Below are positions 18,281 through 34,393 of a DNA stretch of 37,371 nucleotides, one piece after another (within the stretch, counting starts at the first letter, position 1; every line of letters begins with the position of its first letter). Under the pieces are notes generated by a model. It saw only the letters and a list, made by a program, of their open reading frames with translations, ran no database searches and was not told the origin of the DNA. Origin of the DNA: a virus (lineage: Duplodnaviria; Heunggongvirae; Uroviricota; Caudoviricetes); the IMG/VR virus record IMGVR_UViG_2579779116_000018, positions 1 through 37,371 of that record; one strand, 5' to 3'. The position numbers were made by a program, and so were the translations under genes.

Positions 18281-18787
18281 TTAAGAGATTTTCAAAGTCT
18301 GCTTAGTGCCAGTCTTCTTAATGTTATTGAGGAAAGCAGCCGGAGGATTGCTTAACCAATAGTAATGAAAACCGCTTTGCATACTGTTATAAGGAACAGT
18401 GACAGCAGCACCACCCAAATTAACGGTTATATTCCCCGCTCTACCGTTCTGGAGATATACAGCCATAGTAGGAGTACCGCCATTGAATTGACCAACGATA
18501 ACGCCAACCAGATGGCCTACGCCCACGTTTTCGGGGTTCTCCATAGATCCTTTACCGCGCATGTCAGTTACTGGATAGTTTGAAGCAGTTACACCCCAGT
18601 TATTACCCAATGAAGTAGACCATGCAGCAGTAGCAACAACCGTATCCATACCACGACCAGCCATTGCCGACATATTACGCGGAGCCGGAACTTTTAAAGC
18701 TGTTAATGCTTCTTTCATCCATCGCTTACCCGTCACTGATACAGCCGATGACCCGATCCAGCCGGGAACTTTAACGACATTTGCCAT
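18281..18787 (-). CDS. hypothetical structural protein (168 aa)
   Basis: Gly-rich protein between the tail tube candidate and the chaperones; RBS GGAG; function unknown. Confidence 0.55.
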   Translation of the reverse strand: MANVVKVPGWIGSSAVSVTGKRWMKEALTALKVPAPRNMSAMAGRGMDTVVATAAWSTSLGNNWGVTASNYPVTDMRGKGSMENPENVGVGHLVGVIVGQFNGGTPTMAVYLQNGRAGNITVNLGGAAVTVPYNSMQSGFHYYWLSNPPAAFLNNIKKTGTKQTLKIS

Positions 18788-18802
18788 TTTGATTACTCCA
18801 AT

Positions 18803-18829
18803 AAAAAAGCCCCACCATTAAGGCAGGGC
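18803..18829 (-). terminator. intrinsic terminator (copy 1 of an identical pair)
   Basis: Minus-strand RNA GCCCUGCC-uuaa-GGUGGGGC (two G-U pairs) followed by UUUUUU; the same 27 nt recurs at 24578-24604. Confidence 0.7.
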
Positions 18830-18946
18830 TTATAATTAATCTTTAGCCTTGCGGCTTCGTTTAGCTGTGGCTTTCGCCGTAACAACCTCAATTTCAGGAA
18901 TCACCGTAGGTTCATCTTGAATTGGCTGGGGTTGTTCTTCGAAAGT

Positions 18947-19423
18947 TCAACCACCAGCGGTAAACACTTCCTGTTTGATCGGAGCACCATCAACAGCAAA
19001 GGTATATTCTTTAGTTACGACTTCTTCATCGCCACCCTGCATAGCCGCTTTAGAGATAAAGCCGTTGAAAGCGGTGCGAATACCAGTCTGCTTACCAGCA
19101 TCAACATAATATTCAATCTTAATCTGAATACGCGTGCCATCTTCGGCTGCCTTATCCAGTTTAGCGTGTACCGCATCACCTGGGATGTAGTTAACGGTCA
19201 GAGTCAGATCAGGAACGTTCAGTTTCCCTACCAGTTTACGGTTATACTGAGAAGAGAAGGATTTAACTTCTACAGTACCGCGTTCGATAGCAGTTTCAGG
19301 GAAGCCAGCGCACTCTTTAATTTCTTCGTAACCGGAGTGATCGAGAGTGGTATTAGTGGTATCCGCGTGATAGAACAGACTTACCAGACCACCAGTAAAA
19401 ATATCTTTAAATTGCTGAGACAT
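18947..19423 (-). CDS. putative major tail tube protein (158 aa)
   Basis: Size and position upstream of G/T chaperones; strong RBS AAGGGGTAATT; followed by the same terminator module as the capsid gene, consistent with a highly expressed major structural protein. Family not confirmed. Confidence 0.6.
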   Translation of the reverse strand: MSQQFKDIFTGGLVSLFYHADTTNTTLDHSGYEEIKECAGFPETAIERGTVEVKSFSSQYNRKLVGKLNVPDLTLTVNYIPGDAVHAKLDKAAEDGTRIQIKIEYYVDAGKQTGIRTAFNGFISKAAMQGGDEEVVTKEYTFAVDGAPIKQEVFTAGG

Positions 19424-19478: not shown

Positions 19479-22400
19479 TTATTTAGTTGCTTTGAGTTCG
19501 GCTAATTCAGCTTTCGTTTCGGCAAGTTCTTTAGCCATAGCATCAAACTTAGCGCTCATTTCCTGAAACGCCTTAATTAAAAGAGCGTTGACAGCAGAGT
19601 TAGAAATTGTTAAGATCTCTTCTGGCTTATCAGGATCGCCGATCTTAGAAGTTGTTACTGCTTCCGGCAATTCTTTTTCAAGATCCTGAGCAATAATACC
19701 AACTTCATGAGCGATAACAGTGCGGTCCGTCAAAGACTTAACCTTATCGTAGGTGTACACAGTCAAGCGATTAACTTTATCGGTGGCATTCTCCTTATAC
19801 TCTTCCTTGTTGATTTTCAGACGAGCATCAGAACGAATATAAACATCGTTAAAGTTACCATTGCGTCCAGCTTGGAAATCACCGGAGGCGTTAAAGTCAA
19901 AGTTTGTGGTATGGATATGAAGACGTGCCATAGCATTAGTAATAACACCACTAGGAACGTGTACACCCATTGCCGCGATGTGGTCTAAACCCCATTTGGT
20001 CGCTTTCCATACGTTATATGCGGAAGTTTGAGCATTAGGACAATCAACCAATAAGCCAGCAGCGCGAGTTTTCCATTCTGACCATGCACCACCTTGTACT
20101 TCTCCGCGAATCAAACCACGGTCGCTACCGTTTGCATACCCACGTTCTAAGCGAATCATACCAGTCTGGAAAACATGGTCAAATTCTCCGCTGTTATAGT
20201 TTCGAATGCGCATTTGACCTGAGCCATCACCCCAGATAACACCACGGTTAGTACCATTAGCATCCTTAAACCAGAGTTCTTTATTACCATCTCTATACAT
20301 CTGAATTTGGTTATTGGTACGCAAAACATTAGTAACCACCAAATCACCATTTATCCGAGCACGACCACCCGTTTCTAAACTACCAGCAACTCTGAATTGA
20401 ATCGAACCGTTAGAATCACGCTGAGAATATAGATGATAGCTTGTTTCGTCAGCAAGTTCCCACACCTGAGCGCGAGTTTCATTACCCCAAGATTTAACAA
20501 AGAATACAGATTTCGATCCTTCGTCGTTACGTTCCCAATACAGTCTGCTTCCAAGATGTGTGGTTGCGTTCACTTCAACTCGTTTACGTTCGTTGTTGAG
20601 ACGCATTAAATGATTACCAGCATCGCTACCACCTAGTGTAACGTTACCATTGGCTAGGCTATAGATGAACGGCCTAAAGGTATTCCACGGACCCATAGTG
20701 TCGCCTGATTTTGTGCTCATCAGATAAACGTTACTACCGTCATTTCGCCACCATGAACCATAGTTACCATATACAGTACGGAAGCCATCAGCATATAAAG
20801 AAATGAATTGACCGTTAGTATAAACTCGCTTCATATTGCCAGTTTGAAGTTCTATCTGGCCGTCAATATGTTGACGAATAGAACTACCGCCTACATCACT
20901 ATACCATTCAAAAACGTTAGTATCAGCATTGGCATAACCGATCCATCCTTGACGAGTAATATCTCCAGTACGATTATCTTGAAACGCAATATGGTTGGAT
21001 TGACCAGCAGGTCGGCGTAGTGTAATGGCATTAGATCCGCCATTTAACAGCATACGACCAGAAATAATATTACCTTTATGAGTCCCAGCAATAGAGCTAC
21101 TAGATTCAACGGTTAGAATATCCTGAGCATCAGTGGCACCAGTAGCCAGACGATAGCTGGCACCTTGAACAGTCTCATGCCAGATCATTTCATTATAGTT
21201 ACTACGGAATTTACGAATATATTTCCGTCCAGTACCTCTATCATTGCTTAGATGAACAATGTCATAGCTGTTTTGTGTATTGTCGTCAAAACTCAACACA
21301 CCACGTTTATTTTCGGTGTTGAAAAGAGTTACGTTGCGACCACCGATAACACCAACGGAAGGTTTAATTAACGTGGCTTCCGGCGTATCATAAACCGTCA
21401 AACTTACATAAACAGATTTCCCATATTCGACAATAACGTTATCGGTATAACGCTGATATTTCACGTAGATATCATAGTTATCACCGGAAGTATTGACAGC
21501 AAATACCTCAAAATCTTTGTTTGTATTTCTACGGTATGCAATTACGTTAAGACCTTTAGGTCTATCGTTACCACTACGCAGAAGAATTTCTACTACGTCA
21601 ACCTGATCATATGCCGTAACGCTGTAACCATTACCACCATGAATACGGAAAAACACACTACGCCCGTTTTGTGGAATTGTTGCGGTTGCCAATTTGAAAT
21701 ATGCAGATACGTTTTCGCTAGAATTAGGAACAGACATAACGACGTTTTTAACAAACATCTTATCAACTTCTGCTTTAGTGTATGCACCAATCTCGCCAGG
21801 AGTCGGCTTATCACCTTCGTGATACATCTTATAGCTAAAGTTCTTCTGTCCTTCTCTATCAAAACCATAGGTTTCAACACGAGATCCACCAGACGCATAA
21901 CGGAAAGTAAATCCGCGACCGTGCGCTTTACCGGCAGAATGAGGAACGTTAAGGGTCAGATCCATGAGTCCATCTTGTCCATTGGTACGGAAAGCACCAA
22001 AGTAGTTAAGATCTCGCGCTGTCTGATCTTCCAGATAGTTAGCTGTCTTGCTTAACAAATACCCGCCATGCTTAGTATTGGTATTCTTCTTGATGTAAGC
22101 AGCATCGGCACTACCTTCAATAGAATCAATTCGCTGGTTAGCTGCGGCAATTGCGGCATCAGTAGAAGATTTATTCTGGTCTACCTTGTTGTTAATAGCG
22201 GTATGGTTGCTGTTAACAGTGCCAGTAAGGTTACTGATTTTAGTATCAGCATCTTTCTTGTTGTCGGAAACGACCTTTTCAATCGCTGTTTTGTTAGCTG
22301 CAACCGTGCTAGTTAAGCTAGAAATTTTGTTATCTGCATCGGTTTTATTTGCAGTAACAGTTTTAGTTAAGTTGCTAACGTTGGTGTTAGTGGTATTAAC

Positions 22401-22928
22401 TTTGTTGTTAATCGCGGTGTTATTGTCATTAACCGTCGTGGTTAAAGCTGCGATTTTATTGTCCGCATCTCGTTTATTATTTGCTACAGTAGTTTCTATA
22501 GCTGATTTGTTAGATGCAACTGTCCCTGTAAGGTTATTGATCTTAGTATCAGCATCGGTTTTATTTGCCGTGACTGTCTGGGTTAAGTTACTAACCGTGG
22601 TGTTAGTAGCATCAATGCGCTTATTGGTCGCTGTATCTTTCGTGGTAATAGTCTGATTCAGTTCAGCTTTAGCACTAGCCAGATTATTAGCGGCTTCTTG
22701 TTTGTTGGAAGCAATAACACGGTCAGTGCTAGTTTTGTTATTGTCTACTTTCGTATTCAGTTCAGCGTGTTTTTCTGGAGAAACACTAATTTGGACTACG
22801 TTATTATTTTTGTCTTTGGTGTAAATCACATGATCCGCCAACTGTAAGGCGATTTCACCCTGTGATAATTGTTCCGGCGTTGGTTTTTTACCAGCCGTTT
22901 GTGTGCGTTTAAATTGGATTGATTGCAT
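19479..22928 (-). CDS. fibre protein with C-terminal intramolecular chaperone (peptidase S74) domain (1149 aa)
   Basis: C-terminus SDARLKINKEEY...VIAHEVGIIAQDLEKELPEAV...LLIKAFQEM matches the auto-cleaving chaperone domain of T5 L-shaped fibre / endosialidase type; N-terminal third is Thr/Asn-rich tandem repeats; KPTPGEIGAYTKAEVD motif. Confidence 0.85.
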   Translation of the reverse strand: MQSIQFKRTQTAGKKPTPEQLSQGEIALQLADHVIYTKDKNNNVVQISVSPEKHAELNTKVDNNKTSTDRVIASNKQEAANNLASAKAELNQTITTKDTATNKRIDATNTTVSNLTQTVTANKTDADTKINNLTGTVASNKSAIETTVANNKRDADNKIAALTTTVNDNNTAINNKVNTTNTNVSNLTKTVTANKTDADNKISSLTSTVAANKTAIEKVVSDNKKDADTKISNLTGTVNSNHTAINNKVDQNKSSTDAAIAAANQRIDSIEGSADAAYIKKNTNTKHGGYLLSKTANYLEDQTARDLNYFGAFRTNGQDGLMDLTLNVPHSAGKAHGRGFTFRYASGGSRVETYGFDREGQKNFSYKMYHEGDKPTPGEIGAYTKAEVDKMFVKNVVMSVPNSSENVSAYFKLATATIPQNGRSVFFRIHGGNGYSVTAYDQVDVVEILLRSGNDRPKGLNVIAYRRNTNKDFEVFAVNTSGDNYDIYVKYQRYTDNVIVEYGKSVYVSLTVYDTPEATLIKPSVGVIGGRNVTLFNTENKRGVLSFDDNTQNSYDIVHLSNDRGTGRKYIRKFRSNYNEMIWHETVQGASYRLATGATDAQDILTVESSSSIAGTHKGNIISGRMLLNGGSNAITLRRPAGQSNHIAFQDNRTGDITRQGWIGYANADTNVFEWYSDVGGSSIRQHIDGQIELQTGNMKRVYTNGQFISLYADGFRTVYGNYGSWWRNDGSNVYLMSTKSGDTMGPWNTFRPFIYSLANGNVTLGGSDAGNHLMRLNNERKRVEVNATTHLGSRLYWERNDEGSKSVFFVKSWGNETRAQVWELADETSYHLYSQRDSNGSIQFRVAGSLETGGRARINGDLVVTNVLRTNNQIQMYRDGNKELWFKDANGTNRGVIWGDGSGQMRIRNYNSGEFDHVFQTGMIRLERGYANGSDRGLIRGEVQGGAWSEWKTRAAGLLVDCPNAQTSAYNVWKATKWGLDHIAAMGVHVPSGVITNAMARLHIHTTNFDFNASGDFQAGRNGNFNDVYIRSDARLKINKEEYKENATDKVNRLTVYTYDKVKSLTDRTVIAHEVGIIAQDLEKELPEAVTTSKIGDPDKPEEILTISNSAVNALLIKAFQEMSAKFDAMAKELAETKAELAELKATK
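22070..22720 (-). repeat. in-frame tandem coding repeats within the fibre gene
   Basis: Protein-level repeats of the type TVTANKTDADTKI(N/S)NLTGTV..N.TAIN(N)KV recur several times; nucleotide repeats visible. Approximate bounds. Confidence 0.6.
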
Positions 22929-23007: not shown

Positions 23008-23841
23008 TTAATACTCACCGAAATCGATCCGGTCAGTCTTAGCCACTGCGCCAATTTCGCTAGGTGTCGGTTTCTCATTGGTGGAATATACCTTGATCCA
23101 TTCAGAACGACCGTTTTCCTGAATATTTCGGACACGTAAACGCGGTGCGCCAGAAGTATTACAGGTTAATTGCCATGCGCCATGCTCATTAGCTTGAAGG
23201 TGAATTAATGCTGTGTCGGTTGAATATGGATTACCGCTAGCAGTTCCCTTGTAAGTTACGAAACGGTTTCCGGCTAATGCCTCGCTATCAATCGGACCCG
23301 TGAAAGGATTTACACCAGCACCGATACCAAAATCACCCTGACGTAAGATACGGCCTTCGGTCGCTATACCCCTTGCTAGAATCCCGCCATCTGGTTCAAG
23401 TTTAAATTCCAGTGTTACAGCTTTGTTATCACTACCACGGGTTTTATGTGATGTGACGTAAGCATCATAGATGACATAGTAACCAGTGTTAGCAGCACTA
23501 TAGCCAGAGTTCACAACATAGAACATACGGAAGCGTAAAGGTGTTTTATCCTCTACCGCTTTCATCAACATTGCTTGATGTTCATCGTCAAGAACACGGT
23601 TTAACGTGAGTGTCGTCGGTTCCAGTCTACGATAACCAGCAAGTTTCCCCGTAGCGTCCTGATCGTACTCTTCCAGAGTTTCTATCTCTGTGGATTCGGT
23701 TAGCGTAGGGAATGCTGCGACGTTCTCAATAGAACTAAAACTAGGATCGAAAAAGTCGACCTGATTGTCTATCTGGTTAGAGATCGACACTTCAACATGT
23801 GATCCAGTGAAAATATCTAAGTTATCTTGTGTAATATTCAT
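23008..23841 (-). CDS. structural protein (277 aa), possibly neck/collar or fibre-associated
   Basis: RBS AAGGGGTAATA; C-terminal EKPTPSEIGA motif shared with the downstream fibre; role not determined. Confidence 0.6.
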   Translation of the reverse strand: MNITQDNLDIFTGSHVEVSISNQIDNQVDFFDPSFSSIENVAAFPTLTESTEIETLEEYDQDATGKLAGYRRLEPTTLTLNRVLDDEHQAMLMKAVEDKTPLRFRMFYVVNSGYSAANTGYYVIYDAYVTSHKTRGSDNKAVTLEFKLEPDGGILARGIATEGRILRQGDFGIGAGVNPFTGPIDSEALAGNRFVTYKGTASGNPYSTDTALIHLQANEHGAWQLTCNTSGAPRLRVRNIQENGRSEWIKVYSTNEKPTPSEIGAVAKTDRIDFGEY

Positions 23842-23850
23842 TATTACCCC

Positions 23851-24273
23851 TTAAAAACGCGCTAGATAAGAAAATTTAAGGCTAAGTGTCCCAACGATAC
23901 CACCATCACTAGAATCATCGTCATAATCGGTATTAGAGGCTACTGGAGTGATATCTGAAATTGAGAAGCCCAAATCTTTAAAACGTGGGTTATCCGGCTG
24001 AATCTGGATTATCTGGCAAATACCCTCATGAATTTTGGTTTCATGAATCTGAGAATATAATTGCATTTCGATAACGCATTCAGCTTGCATTGCATTACCA
24101 CCACGAACACGCGTATAAGTTTCATTCATGCCAGTGATCCAACAAACCACGTCATCACTAAAGCCTTGCTGAGTTTGTTCTACGTTTAAAGCCAGACCTA
24201 AATCTTGTTCGATAATATCTTGCAAGGCGCGTTTGATTTTCAGTCTAGGCATATTATTAACGGTAGCGAGCAT
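23851..24273 (-). CDS. head-tail connector protein candidate (about 140 aa)
   Basis: Start placed at internal ATG 24271-24273 with RBS AGGGGGT; small protein directly after the capsid gene region, typical position of head completion proteins. Confidence 0.5.
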   Translation of the reverse strand: MLATVNNMPRLKIKRALQDIIEQDLGLALNVEQTQQGFSDDVVCWITGMNETYTRVRGGNAMQAECVIEMQLYSQIHETKIHEGICQIIQIQPDNPRFKDLGFSISDITPVASNTDYDDDSSDGGIVGTLSLKFSYLARF

Positions 24274-24547: not shown

Positions 24548-24577
24548 AGTTACCCCCTTTATGGAGTATTTACATAC

Positions 24578-24604
24578 AAAAAAGCCCCACCATTAAGGCA
24601 GGGC
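24578..24604 (-). terminator. intrinsic terminator (copy 2 of an identical pair)
   Basis: Identical 27 nt to 18803-18829: GCCCUGCC-uuaa-GGUGGGGC then UUUUUU, immediately downstream of the capsid gene. Confidence 0.7.
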
Positions 24605-24697
24605 TAATTATTATTTTGCTTTCGGTGGACGTCCCACCTTTTTAGCTGTGGCTTTCGCCGTAACTACCGGAATTTCTTCCGGCAATTCTTCGTTATT

Positions 24698-26704
24698 TCA
24701 CTCTTCGCCCATTTTCAGAACTTTCAGAGCTTCCGGCTGAACTACGGTGAAGTCCAGGTCTACCCAGATACGCGGAACGATAGCAGACTGTGCGCGGTAA
24801 GTGGTGTCATCCATATCCAGTTCCAGACCACCCCATTCACCGATCATGATACCGGAGAAGTCACCCAGAACGATGTGGTCTGCCGGAATAACGCCAGAAG
24901 TAACTACATCGTAACCAGCCAGTTTGCCGTTTTCGATGATATAACCGGAAACGCCGTTATCTTTCAGGGTAGATTCCAGTTCAGCAGCAGTTGCACCGCT
25001 CATTGCAAACTTGATGGACTGTGCCGGAACGCCAGCGTCGGTCAGTGCTGCAATTTCTTTCAGGAAGTCTTTGTAAGAGAAGGCAGTTTTCTTAGTAACG
25101 CGACCACCGTCTACCAGTTGCTTAACCAGACCAGCCGGACCACGAGTATTATCTTTGTCAGACAGAATCAGTTGTTCCAGTTTGATCCGAACAGCTTTGT
25201 TAATGTGATCAGTGATCAGGGTAGCGATGCCGGGAACTTGCTTGATGCTCGCTCTGCTAATCGGGTTGCCTCCAGCAAACGTCTTAGGAGACATTTTCAC
25301 GTTCGAAAAGGTAGCCTTCGACTCGGGGGCACTTCCATTTTCATCAACAAAACCAAAGGCTTCGACGCTGGAAGCAGTCATTTTTGGTACTGCAATCGGG
25401 CTATTCAGACCAGACAGAACAGTCACACCCAGACGACCCAGACACGAAGCAGGAAGCAGCATTTCGATGTAGGATTCAGTCAGCAGTTTTTCATCGGTGA
25501 TAGCAGTCAGGTCAGCTTTGGTGTTGCCAGCAGCAGCAGCACGCATAGCAGCAGCCGGAACGAATACAGAGCCACCACGAGCAGCACGACCACGCTGCAT
25601 TGCAGCACCAGCAGCCATAGCGGAATATTCAGCTTCGTTAGCACCCAGAGCAGCACCATCTACCAGAGAGCGAATTACGTTGTTCAGGTCAAAAGTTTTT
25701 TCCATGTTTTTTTCCTTATTAATTTGTTCGTTATTACGTTGAGCATTGGTAATGTTATTTAGTGCCTTAGTGCGGAATGCTTCCGGCGTCATGTCTTTAA
25801 TTGCCAATGCGCGTTTCAATTCTTCGTCGTCAATATTTAGTTCGCGTGCAATTTCGCGAATTTCTAATTCGTCTTCTTCGGAACGTTCAGCCACTTCTTC
25901 GATTTTTTCTTCTTCAATCGGAGCGGCTTCACGTTCTTCTTTTACTTCTTCTTCTTCCCGAACAGTTGAACTATCATCATCAACACTTTCAGGATGTTCA
26001 GCGTCTTTTCCGTCTTCGAGATTTTCATCTTCTTTATTCTCTTCAACTTGGCGCTCTTGAGTTTCTTCAACTTCCGATTCTTTATTTTCTTCTACCGGAG
26101 TTTCTTCAACCTGAGCGGATTCTTGTTCTTCTTTGATTTCTTCGATTTGTTCTTTAGTCATATCGCGTTTAGCCCCCAAATTAACTGTGATAGTATTTAG
26201 AGAGCGATTTAAACCGACCGAATCATCGGCAGGGACCGTCACAAATGAAATTTCAAAAGGCGCCCACTTAGTAACAATCAATTGCCCTTTGGTGTAGTCG
26301 ATGTGATATTCTTTAATGTCATAACCGACAGAAATTTTTTCCATCGTACCTTCAATGACTTTATTGCGAATATCATTAGCCAAAGTGCCATGCTTAGAGA
26401 ATTTAACCAGAGCACGACCTACGTTATCCGTATCGATTCGAGCGTCGCAGACTACACCAATGTGATTATCGAAATTATGATTGAACAGCAACGGAGCGTT
26501 ATTATTCAGACGAGACAGATCAACCGCTTCCGGTGTATGTACCAGAATTTCATCTAATACCACCATTTCTTGATTTTGCTCATCCCAGAATTGGCGCTGG
26601 TAAGGCTGGGTACTGGAGAAAGCAATTTCAAATTCGTATTGATCGTTATGCCCTTCATTAATAACTCCACCGTAACCGTTAAGATCGCGGCGAAATTTAA
26701 GCAT
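24698..26704 (-). CDS. prohead protease (S78-like) - scaffold-like linker - HK97-fold major capsid protein fusion (668 aa)
   Basis: N-terminal domain with PLLFNHNFDNHIGVV, KISVGYDIKEYHID and FEISFVTVPADD (caudoviral prohead protease signature); Glu-rich about 120 aa linker; C-terminal about 350 aa typical of HK97-type capsid proteins; single uninterrupted ORF. Confidence 0.85.
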   Translation of the reverse strand: MLKFRRDLNGYGGVINEGHNDQYEFEIAFSSTQPYQRQFWDEQNQEMVVLDEILVHTPEAVDLSRLNNNAPLLFNHNFDNHIGVVCDARIDTDNVGRALVKFSKHGTLANDIRNKVIEGTMEKISVGYDIKEYHIDYTKGQLIVTKWAPFEISFVTVPADDSVGLNRSLNTITVNLGAKRDMTKEQIEEIKEEQESAQVEETPVEENKESEVEETQERQVEENKEDENLEDGKDAEHPESVDDDSSTVREEEEVKEEREAAPIEEEKIEEVAERSEEDELEIREIARELNIDDEELKRALAIKDMTPEAFRTKALNNITNAQRNNEQINKEKNMEKTFDLNNVIRSLVDGAALGANEAEYSAMAAGAAMQRGRAARGGSVFVPAAAMRAAAAGNTKADLTAITDEKLLTESYIEMLLPASCLGRLGVTVLSGLNSPIAVPKMTASSVEAFGFVDENGSAPESKATFSNVKMSPKTFAGGNPISRASIKQVPGIATLITDHINKAVRIKLEQLILSDKDNTRGPAGLVKQLVDGGRVTKKTAFSYKDFLKEIAALTDAGVPAQSIKFAMSGATAAELESTLKDNGVSGYIIENGKLAGYDVVTSGVIPADHIVLGDFSGIMIGEWGGLELDMDDTTYRAQSAIVPRIWVDLDFTVVQPEALKVLKMGEE

Positions 26705-34203: not shown

Positions 34204-34393
34204 TTTCGGGGGCAAATTTCAGGGGCAAAAATTAGATTTTCAGGGGCAATTATTGGCATTTCAGGGGCAAAAATGAGGGGCAAAATCACCGTTTCCCAGA
34301 ATTTCAGGGGCAAAAATAGTAGGTTTCAGGGGCAAAAATGGGATAGTGAAATCTAGGGGGATTTTGGTTCAGGGGCAAAATTCAGGGGCAATT
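34204..34393. repeat. iteron-like direct repeats, consensus TTCAGGGGCAAAA (about 10 copies)
   Basis: Copies at approx 34204, 34218, 34238, 34260, 34274, 34304, 34324, 34352 (degenerate), 34369, 34381, irregularly spaced; all same orientation; immediately upstream of the promoter at 34461. Confidence 0.7.

Follow-up and report, generated by a model that had tools for sequence, protein, structure and literature searches.

Conserved UGA-A stop codons and in-frame extensions of the capsid and tail-tube genes of an Escherichia coli prophage point to probable programmed readthrough

The subject of this analysis is a stretch of viral DNA of 37,371 nucleotides (nt) (IMG/VR record IMGVR_UViG_2579779116_000018, referred to here as the window), which is a chromosomal prophage of Escherichia coli. 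Its genes for the major capsid protein and for the tail-tube protein share a common arrangement at their 3' ends, in which a UGA stop codon followed by A precedes an open in-frame extension, a set of small hairpins and an intrinsic terminator. Comparison with related prophages suggests that these stops are probably subject to programmed readthrough, by which a minority of capsid and tube subunits would acquire an additional C-terminal tail. Both genes lie on the minus strand, and coordinates are given as window positions throughout.

The major capsid gene (24698..26704, minus strand) encodes a protein of 668 amino acids in which an S78 prohead protease, an acidic scaffold-like linker and an HK97-type capsid domain are fused. 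The assignment is based on matches to the Pfam families Phage_capsid (8e-26, 91.5 bits against a cut-off of 24.2) and Peptidase_S78 (9e-11, 42.6 bits against a cut-off of 21), both of which exceed the curated cut-offs, and to PHROG 617, major head protein (4e-94). The stop codon is the TGA at 24700-24698 and the gene end reads gag-TGA-a, so that the candidate leaky signal UGA-A occupies positions 24697..24700. Frame 0 then continues for 28 codons (24614..24697) that encode NNEELPEEIPVVTAKATAKKVGRPPKAK, an acidic, proline-containing linker followed by a basic tip, and is closed by tandem stops, TAA TAA (24608..24613), which are also present at the end of the extension in nearly all other capsid copies. 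An earlier, sequence-only reading of this DNA had recognised that the capsid gene ends at UGA-A with an open frame beyond it, but gave that frame as NNEELPEEIPVVNGESHS with 18 codons and inserted an extra A (GTT AAC GGC rather than GTT ACG GCG), a 1-nt offset that appeared to move the TAKATAK-basic peptide into the +1 frame. The sequence at this point is ccg gta gtt acg gcg aaa gcc aca gct aaa aag gtg gga cgt cca ccg aaa gca aaa taa taa; the capsid gene and the peptide share one reading frame, exactly as the tube gene and its peptide do, and since the extension lies in frame 0 no frameshift is needed to reach it in the window.

Several RNA features are superimposed on the capsid extension. Stem-loop 1 (24662..24687) has an 11-bp stem formed by AAUUGCCGGAA and UUCCGGUAGUU with a GAAA loop, and is followed by a conserved 24-nt box, GTTACGGCGAAAGCCACAGCTAAA (24641..24664), which encodes VTAKATAK and contains the mini-hairpin GGC-GAAA-GCC (24650-24659). 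A third hairpin, GGUGG-GACGU-CCACC (24624..24638), lies within the codons of the basic tip and covaries in relatives as GGCGG..CCGCC. Read on the plus strand, the same positions, 24624-24638, give the hairpin GGTGGACGTCCCACC with TTTTT behind it; this resembles a terminator that would act on antisense transcription running into the capsid gene. The intrinsic terminator of the capsid gene itself (24577..24605) consists of a 9-bp stem with the loop TTAAT, AGCCCTGCC-TTAAT-GGTGGGGCT, and a T-run, and the first TAA of the extension is located 5 nt upstream of it. Among relatives the terminator stems are conserved and the loops are variable, and one relative possesses a different hairpin at the same place.

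The putative tail-tube gene (18947..19423, minus strand) encodes 158 amino acids and ends at the TGA at 18949-18947, again followed by A (ggt-TGA-a). Its product matches PHROG 158, major tail protein (3e-21), carries the RefSeq name "phage tail tube protein" and is encoded upstream of chaperone-like genes and the tape measure gene; its scores for Phage_TTP_11 (23.1 bits) and Phage_TTP_12 (20.3 bits) fall below the Pfam cut-offs of 28.4 and 26.1. The in-frame extension (18839..18946) comprises 36 codons, TFEEQPQPIQDEPTVIPEIEVVTAKATAKRSRKAKD, and terminates at the TAA at 18838-18836. Within it, a base stem pairs 18926-18936 with 18881-18891, the box lies at 18860-18880, and the terminator, with the same 28-nt hairpin and T-run as in the capsid copy, occupies 18801..18831. 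The 24-nt box, GTTACGGCGAAAGCCACAGCTAAA, and the 28-nt hairpin with its T-run, AGCCCTGCCTTAATGGTGGGGCTTTTTT, are identical in the two modules. The stretch between box and terminator differs in sequence, and by 6 nt in length, and encodes a basic peptide in both. The two module hairpins are the two best terminator-like sites on the minus strand between 17 and 31 kb, and the window contains exactly two occurrences of the 21-nt box core, where shuffled sequences lead one to expect none. The proposal of the sequence-only reading that two structural genes share one downstream module, and not by chance, is thus borne out, all the more so as the module is kept in all related copies examined. Annotation by PGAP ends both genes at the TGA.

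Related copies were obtained from 32 close relatives in IMG/VR, 18 further loci matching the box pattern and 20 metagenome loci, and tube-protein homologs were used as a route to more distant prophages of Salmonella (L077) and Providencia (L084). Among 5,426 complete genomes, 55 contain the capsid region, which is 99% identical in E. coli VTB96775v and BS74R-D; the tube extension is present in STEC1575. The prophage of strain ES2 interrupts ycdX and carries a serine recombinase gene at one end. A megablast search with both regions against GenBank phages gave no match, the nearest GenBank phage being DCP80 with 43% amino-acid identity. Neither a scan with the capsid protein nor one with the box pattern gave a match in a one-genome-per-species collection, from which we conclude that the module is not present in the species representatives.

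In every capsid and tube copy from the IMG/VR, box-pattern and metagenome loci TGA is followed by A, by an in-frame extension and by a stop beside the terminator. This includes a second, different capsid lineage of E. coli (L042). The capsid genes of Salmonella, with TPVEPSEPLPDNGESETPSVTAKATKRGRKPKE after the TGA-A, and of Providencia, with TNEELPEEEPLPVATEKSTKRRKSK, are arranged alike. The extension ends in TAA or TGA in the IMG/VR, metagenome, L042 and L077 copies, and in TAG in L084, with a spacing of 5-9 nt between this stop and the terminator stem. The sequence-only reading was right to attach importance to the two UGA-A stops. Of the 22 genes in the late operon of the window, 20 have a TAA stop, and the only TGA stops are those of the capsid and tube genes, which are expected to be the most highly expressed late genes.

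We observe directly that the frame, too, is conserved. The 44 distinct extension DNAs fall into ten length classes, all of them multiples of 3 (90, 105, 132, 135, 138 and 141 nt for the capsid; 114, 123, 126 and 129 nt for the tube), and all insertions and deletions among the variants keep the frame. Frame 0 is free of stops in all 30 distinct variants from IMG/VR and the window, whereas frames +1 and +2 each contain at least one stop; the Salmonella and Providencia representatives likewise have an open frame 0 and stops in the other two frames. Given the composition, the chance of an open frame is 0.08-0.32 per sequence, which is unremarkable singly, but the product over four non-homologous linkers is about 4e-4. 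No class contains a conserved in-frame start codon inside the extension, so that the extension could be translated only from the upstream gene and an independent small open reading frame (ORF) is ruled out. One apparently fused tube protein of 198 amino acids (P0015) proved to be an artefact of gene calling, as the DNA still has the TGA.

A second line of evidence comes from the RNA structure predicted after the UGA. The extension RNAs form much better folds than their shuffled counterparts do, with z = -5.5 for the capsid extension and z = -3.0 for the tube extension. The short capsid class, the long capsid class, a variant with a 9-codon deletion, two tube types, Salmonella and Providencia were each folded, and every one of these classes has a stem whose first nucleotide is nt 14, at a spacing of 10 nt from the UGA. 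This base stem, with 7-11 of 11 pairs in register, closes 2 nt before the mini-hairpin GGN-GAAA-NCC that forms the core of the box, and is followed by the third small hairpin and then the terminator. For a covariation test, nt 1-24, the 11 nt preceding the box and the box itself were joined for the 30 distinct variants. Paired cells make up 85% of the total in register, and 20-47% once partners are slid by 1-3 columns; 9 of the 14 pairs are changed on both sides, and the covariation score of 0.30 compares with 0.13 in shuffles (0 of 500 shuffles reach 0.30) and 0.05-0.15 in the slid controls.

Several examples of compensatory change can be given. The base stems of the tube types read AACUUC/GAAGUU or AACAAC/GUUGUU, a U-A pair is replaced by C-G in L046, the box of Providencia has GGA..UCC in place of GGC..GCC (GGA-GAAA-UCC), the inner hairpin of Salmonella has CUCCCC..GGGGAG in place of UUCCCCC..GGGGGAA, and the third hairpin changes from AGCC-GCAA-GGCU to CGAC-GCAA-GUCG. 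Within the long capsid class only 3 of the 25 variable columns fall in stems (p = 1e-6), a test that is biased because the structure was predicted from the same alignment. RNAalifold applied to the long capsid class alone found no compensatory pairs, since the stems of this class are invariant, and the covariation is seen only when classes or genera are compared in register. The sequence-only reading had left undecided whether the module codes for protein or acts as an RNA element; the evidence now speaks for both, in that the frame is kept over ten length classes and the stems covary.

More diverse ways of ending the capsid protein are found among its distant homologs. Many of these possess a native short basic tail, rich in Ala and Lys, directly before the terminator and without recoding (for example ..AEAKSKA, ..PAEAKAAKQ, ..EAGETRKAK, ..TAVAKAK, ..AGRSK and ..TRVKK). 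In a third group of homologs (L127, L122, L121/L139, L128, DCP80 and Edwardsiella) the capsid genes end in TAA or TGA-T, and an ORF in frame -1 opens 6-12 codons before the stop and spans 12-31 codons, leaving 25-28 nt between its end and the T-run (44 nt in DCP80, L055). The frame -1 tail is LTDTGAQAAPVRKPRALKVTK in L127, where it lies behind a perfect A_AAA_AAG, and LRKAKAKAKAKAETAE in L121 and L139; L122 has an A_AAA_AAA site before its frame -1 tail, and L128, DCP80 and Edwardsiella (L080) have A_AAA_A or A_AAG sites. These A-runs are candidate -1 frameshift or slippage sites, and in L127 and L128 a covarying 8-bp hairpin is also present at the capsid 3' end. Judging from these gene ends, one capsid family apparently attaches a basic C-terminal tail in any of three ways: constitutively, by -1 frameshifting or slippage, or behind UGA-A. 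The occurrence of native and frame -1 basic tails in relatives argues that the tail is protein.

Two further observations concern individual members of this set. The capsid protein of the Hafnia-like L083 ends natively in ..AGAEAKSKD, while in L082 a TAA replaces the Glu codon and the last five residues are lost, which on comparison of the two genes is a natural nonsense truncation of the basic tail. The DCP80 record (PQ671644, Escherichia phage DCP80; positions 1-22000 were used as L055) is filed as a 141-kb Straboviridae (T4-like) genome and carries at its left end a lambda-like terminase, portal, protease-capsid and siphovirus tail module, so that a chimeric assembly is possible.

The relationship between the two modules can also be traced. 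The tube extension and the short capsid extension are homologous over the first 20 nt past the UGA, some capsid copies (L056 and L073) carry the tube-type tip KRGRKPKE, and the capsid terminator of the window has the loop of the tube copy where most relatives have TAAC; together these features indicate that the cassette has been copied and converted between the two genes. The tube proteins of Salmonella and Providencia end natively in ..GSRK, ..SARK or ..AARK, and the Edwardsiella tube protein has the native end ..NVIPEAVAAKEK, which resembles ..VVIPEVEEVTAKATAK. In strain ES2 (L054) the capsid gene with its extension is 99.5% identical to that of the window, and the tube gene (L054, 28576-29046) is a different allele of 156 amino acids that ends in ..AVFQKL-TAA and has no extension. 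As far as these sequences tell, the tube extension is younger than that of the capsid.

Under programmed readthrough, most ribosomes would stop at the UGA and produce the normal capsid and tail-tube proteins, whereas a minority would insert an amino acid, expected to be Trp by way of the near-cognate tRNA-Trp as in Qbeta, and continue for 28 codons in the capsid gene or 36 in the tube gene before stopping at TAA(TAA) just upstream of the terminator. The capsid end ..KMGEE would then be extended to ..MGEE-W-NNEELPEEIPVVTAK, and the tube end ..FTAGG to ..FTAGG-W-TFEEQPQPIQDEPTVIPEIEVVTAK, whose extension starts TFEEQPQ.... Each product would be a sub-stoichiometric subunit bearing an acidic, proline-rich flexible linker and a Lys/Arg-rich tip (V-T-A-K-A-T-A-K-K/R...). 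With the UGA in the A site, the stem that begins 10 nt downstream would be positioned at the mRNA entrance of the ribosome, where it would most probably raise the level of readthrough, as do the readthrough signals of eukaryotic viruses; two small hairpins follow it. By our estimate, readthrough of a few percent would place of the order of ten tails on each capsid and a handful on each tail tube. By analogy with the 10B protein of T7 and the C-terminal domain of lambda gpV, the tails should be on the outer surface. A role of the basic tip in weak binding to anionic surfaces, such as cell-surface polymers, or in assembly, is a guess.

The biochemistry of the host is in part favourable to this reading. 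E. coli reads UGA as Trp at about 2% (PMC8954436), the UGAA context gives relatively weak binding of release factor 2 (RF2) (PMC5373646), and Qbeta makes its A1 protein, which is essential to it, by UGA readthrough at about 5% (PMC7026636, PMC8067240). A number of points nevertheless weigh against it. The RF2 of natural E. coli is more active, and spontaneous UGA readthrough products of host genes went undetected (PMC5373646), so that readthrough at these genes would need real stimulation. No homolog was found that has a sense codon in place of the UGA. The ratio of non-synonymous to synonymous divergence (pN/pS) is 0.4-0.5 in the extensions as against 0.1-0.3 in the upstream 100 codons, a comparison that is biased by its restriction to equal-length pairs and confounded by the overlapping RNA constraint. 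Synonymous divergence (pS) is 0.07 in the extensions and 0.30 in the upstream 100 codons, that is 4-5 times lower, which indicates that a large part of the conservation concerns the nucleotide sequence or the RNA, and several of the compensatory stem changes (those of L046 and Providencia) cost amino-acid changes. The tube extension is missing from other tube alleles in otherwise near-identical prophages (ES2) and from the tube genes of Salmonella and Providencia; it is therefore allele-specific and dispensable. Finally, the case for readthrough is drawn from comparative sequence evidence. The combination of low pS with a pN/pS of 0.4-0.5 would fit a disordered tail that is under overlapping RNA constraint.

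Of the other explanations, the one that survives best, although we consider it unlikely, is that the module is purely an RNA element of the 3' untranslated region, whose three hairpins and terminator protect or process the 3' ends of the abundant capsid and tube mRNAs, or bind a factor, without any meaningful translation. The strong nucleotide conservation and the low synonymous divergence speak for it, as do stems that covary even when the amino acids change, a 24-nt box that is identical in both copies, and variable sites that avoid the stems. Such an element has no reason, however, to maintain an open frame 0 over ten length classes that are all multiples of 3, or to possess a TGA-A stop where the other late genes have TAA and an in-frame TAA-TAA at its end, and it leaves aside the comparable tails that relatives carry as native protein or behind frameshift sites.

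It is less probable still that the arrangement is a translation-coupled attenuator, in which readthrough ribosomes reach the terminator, lower termination and so tune the downstream late genes, the peptide itself being irrelevant. The constant spacing of 5-9 nt between extension stop and terminator stem loses its force as support, since relatives that lack the extension also stop 9-21 nt from their terminators and the spacing is not special. The weak amino-acid constraint on the extension speaks for it, but readthrough of a few percent could shift termination only marginally, and the combination of acidic linker and basic tip turns up repeatedly in sequences without homology and with different modes of recoding. 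Readthrough may, as a by-product, have a translation-coupled effect on the terminator.

A decaying remnant, left when a nonsense mutation severed an ancestral fused tail whose sequence has so far escaped degeneration, is very improbable. Relatives with natively fused tails do exist, and L082 shows just such a nonsense change in its TAA for a Glu codon, yet UGA-A with an open frame has been kept in two capsid lineages of E. coli, in Salmonella and in Providencia, the frame has survived many substitutions and at least six in-frame insertions or deletions, and the module has been copied onto a second gene.

Insertion of selenocysteine at the UGA can be set aside with near certainty. E. coli has the selenocysteine machinery, and a hairpin follows the UGA at roughly the distance of a bacterial selenocysteine insertion sequence (SECIS), but the hairpins differ completely between classes (loops GAAA or GAUUU, or a long multi-branch domain), and the GGUC-type apical loop with the bulged U that SelB of E. 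coli needs is missing from all of them. A search of the module against Rfam gave nothing at the gathering threshold, and hits admitted up to E = 10 were noise, which rules out a known RNA family or SECIS. Access to the capsid basic peptide by frameshifting into the +1 frame is refuted by the sequence, as the extra A on which this idea depended is absent and the peptide is in frame 0; extension by a slippery site in another frame does not occur in the window, and frame -1 tails are seen only in distant relatives. Reassignment of TGA was rejected, since other genes of the window end in TGA without a conserved module and the long genes are all intact under table 11. A suppressor tRNA encoded by the phage was likewise rejected, the only ARAGORN call being a dubious antisense tRNA-Gln of 91 nt (23996-24086, plus strand, anticodon ttg) within a coding gene, which is probably a false positive and not a suppressor.

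A number of neighbouring features deserve mention in their own right. A gene at 23008-23841 (minus strand) encodes a protein of 277 amino acids, the N-terminal half of which matches the tail-tube PHROG 158 and which has an extra C-terminal domain; it is located just upstream of a T4 gp34/gp37-like fibre gene of 1149 amino acids (19479-22928, minus strand) and is possibly a further tube-like protein, serving as an anchor for side fibres. A gp38-like adhesin gene (18281-18787, minus strand) directly follows the tube terminator, so that the tube gene separates the adhesin gene from the fibre gene. In relatives from Salmonella (L146-L150), DUF723/CapR genes occupy the slot after the capsid or tube terminator, and it appears that accessory genes are inserted at positions marked by these terminators. 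In L077 and L084 one terminator hairpin is repeated within each genome after the capsid gene, a 276-amino-acid gene and the tube gene; the terminators of this phage group evolve in concert within a genome. Elsewhere in the window (34204-34393), at least six iteron-like direct repeats of 21-22 nt, TTTCAGGGGCAAAAAT, are spaced 21-43 nt apart and resemble sites bound by a replication protein or a regulator.

To our knowledge, programmed readthrough in bacteria is essentially known from Qbeta, if selenocysteine and pyrrolysine are left apart, and a literature search aimed at the question found no case of a capsid or tail gene of a tailed double-stranded DNA (dsDNA) phage that is extended by stop-codon readthrough. 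If the proposal of programmed readthrough is correct, the present prophage would provide a conserved case in E. coli itself that is supported by comparative genomics and has a candidate RNA stimulator, and annotation pipelines would be truncating these proteins. One family of structural proteins would then adjust the amount of a surface tail by swapping between native fusion, frameshifting and readthrough, and the compact cassette of UGA and stem could serve for low-copy peptide display on phage heads and tails. The interest of the system lies in the two genes affected, in a covarying candidate stimulator in a bacterial setting, and in a mode of recoding that has apparently been swapped in relatives.

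The stem itself invites comparison with the 3' stem-loops that stimulate readthrough in eukaryotic viruses and Drosophila (Firth et al. 2011), with which it shares a stem of about 10-12 bp whose 5' arm lies 7-12 nt past the stop, a very variable loop length, compensatory changes and reduced synonymous variation (PMC3159437). Those elements differ in that they act on 80S ribosomes and eRF1. We know of no 3' stem-loop readthrough element described for the bacterial ribosome and RF2. It is conceivable, although we lean somewhat against it, that the full set of suggestions holds: that the stem is a true stimulator of readthrough on the bacterial ribosome and RF2 and hence a prokaryotic counterpart of the stem-loops of eukaryotic viruses, that the family swaps fusion, -1 frameshifting and stimulated readthrough, and that a portable cassette of UGA, spacer, stem, box and terminator was copied from the capsid gene to the tube gene.

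Among recoded phage genes, the frameshift long forms are comparable in that recoding at the 3' end of major capsid or tail genes gives a fixed minority of extended protein (PMC5009743); the set includes gene 10B of T7 and T3, cps and tsh of the Listeria phages PSA, A118 and A500, gp17.1* of SPP1 and Lactobacillus phage A2. The genes affected in the window, identified by Pfam, PHROG and synteny as major capsid and major tail, are those of the T7 10B/Listeria type, and in PSA, A118 and A500 both the capsid (cps) and the tail-shaft (tsh) genes are recoded (PMC5009743). The long forms of these phages arise by -1 or +1 frameshifting and their extensions are often Ig-like domains, whereas the extensions described here are in frame behind UGA, are too short to form a domain and are supplied by one duplicated module on both genes. 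A heptamer of the dnaX/IS911 type, A_AAA_AAG, does occur a few codons before the stop in the distant relatives L127 and L122, with a basic tail encoded in the -1 ORF; it is not present in the window, whose clade would use readthrough instead. The A1 protein of Qbeta has in common with the proposed products an E. coli host, a leaky UGA that closes the major coat gene and is read by a near-cognate Trp tRNA at a few percent, and a minor, C-terminally extended coat subunit of the virion in which the extension starts with a proline-rich flexible stretch (PMC8067240, PMC7026636). Qbeta differs in being a levivirus with a genome of 4 kb of single-stranded RNA, an unrelated coat fold and a structured readthrough domain of 196 amino acids, while the present system is a tailed dsDNA prophage with an HK97-type capsid, low-complexity extensions of 28-45 amino acids on two genes and a covarying stem. 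The frameshift long forms of T7/T3, the Listeria phages and SPP1 are thus functionally the closest of the known systems, and mechanistically the closest is A1 of Qbeta.

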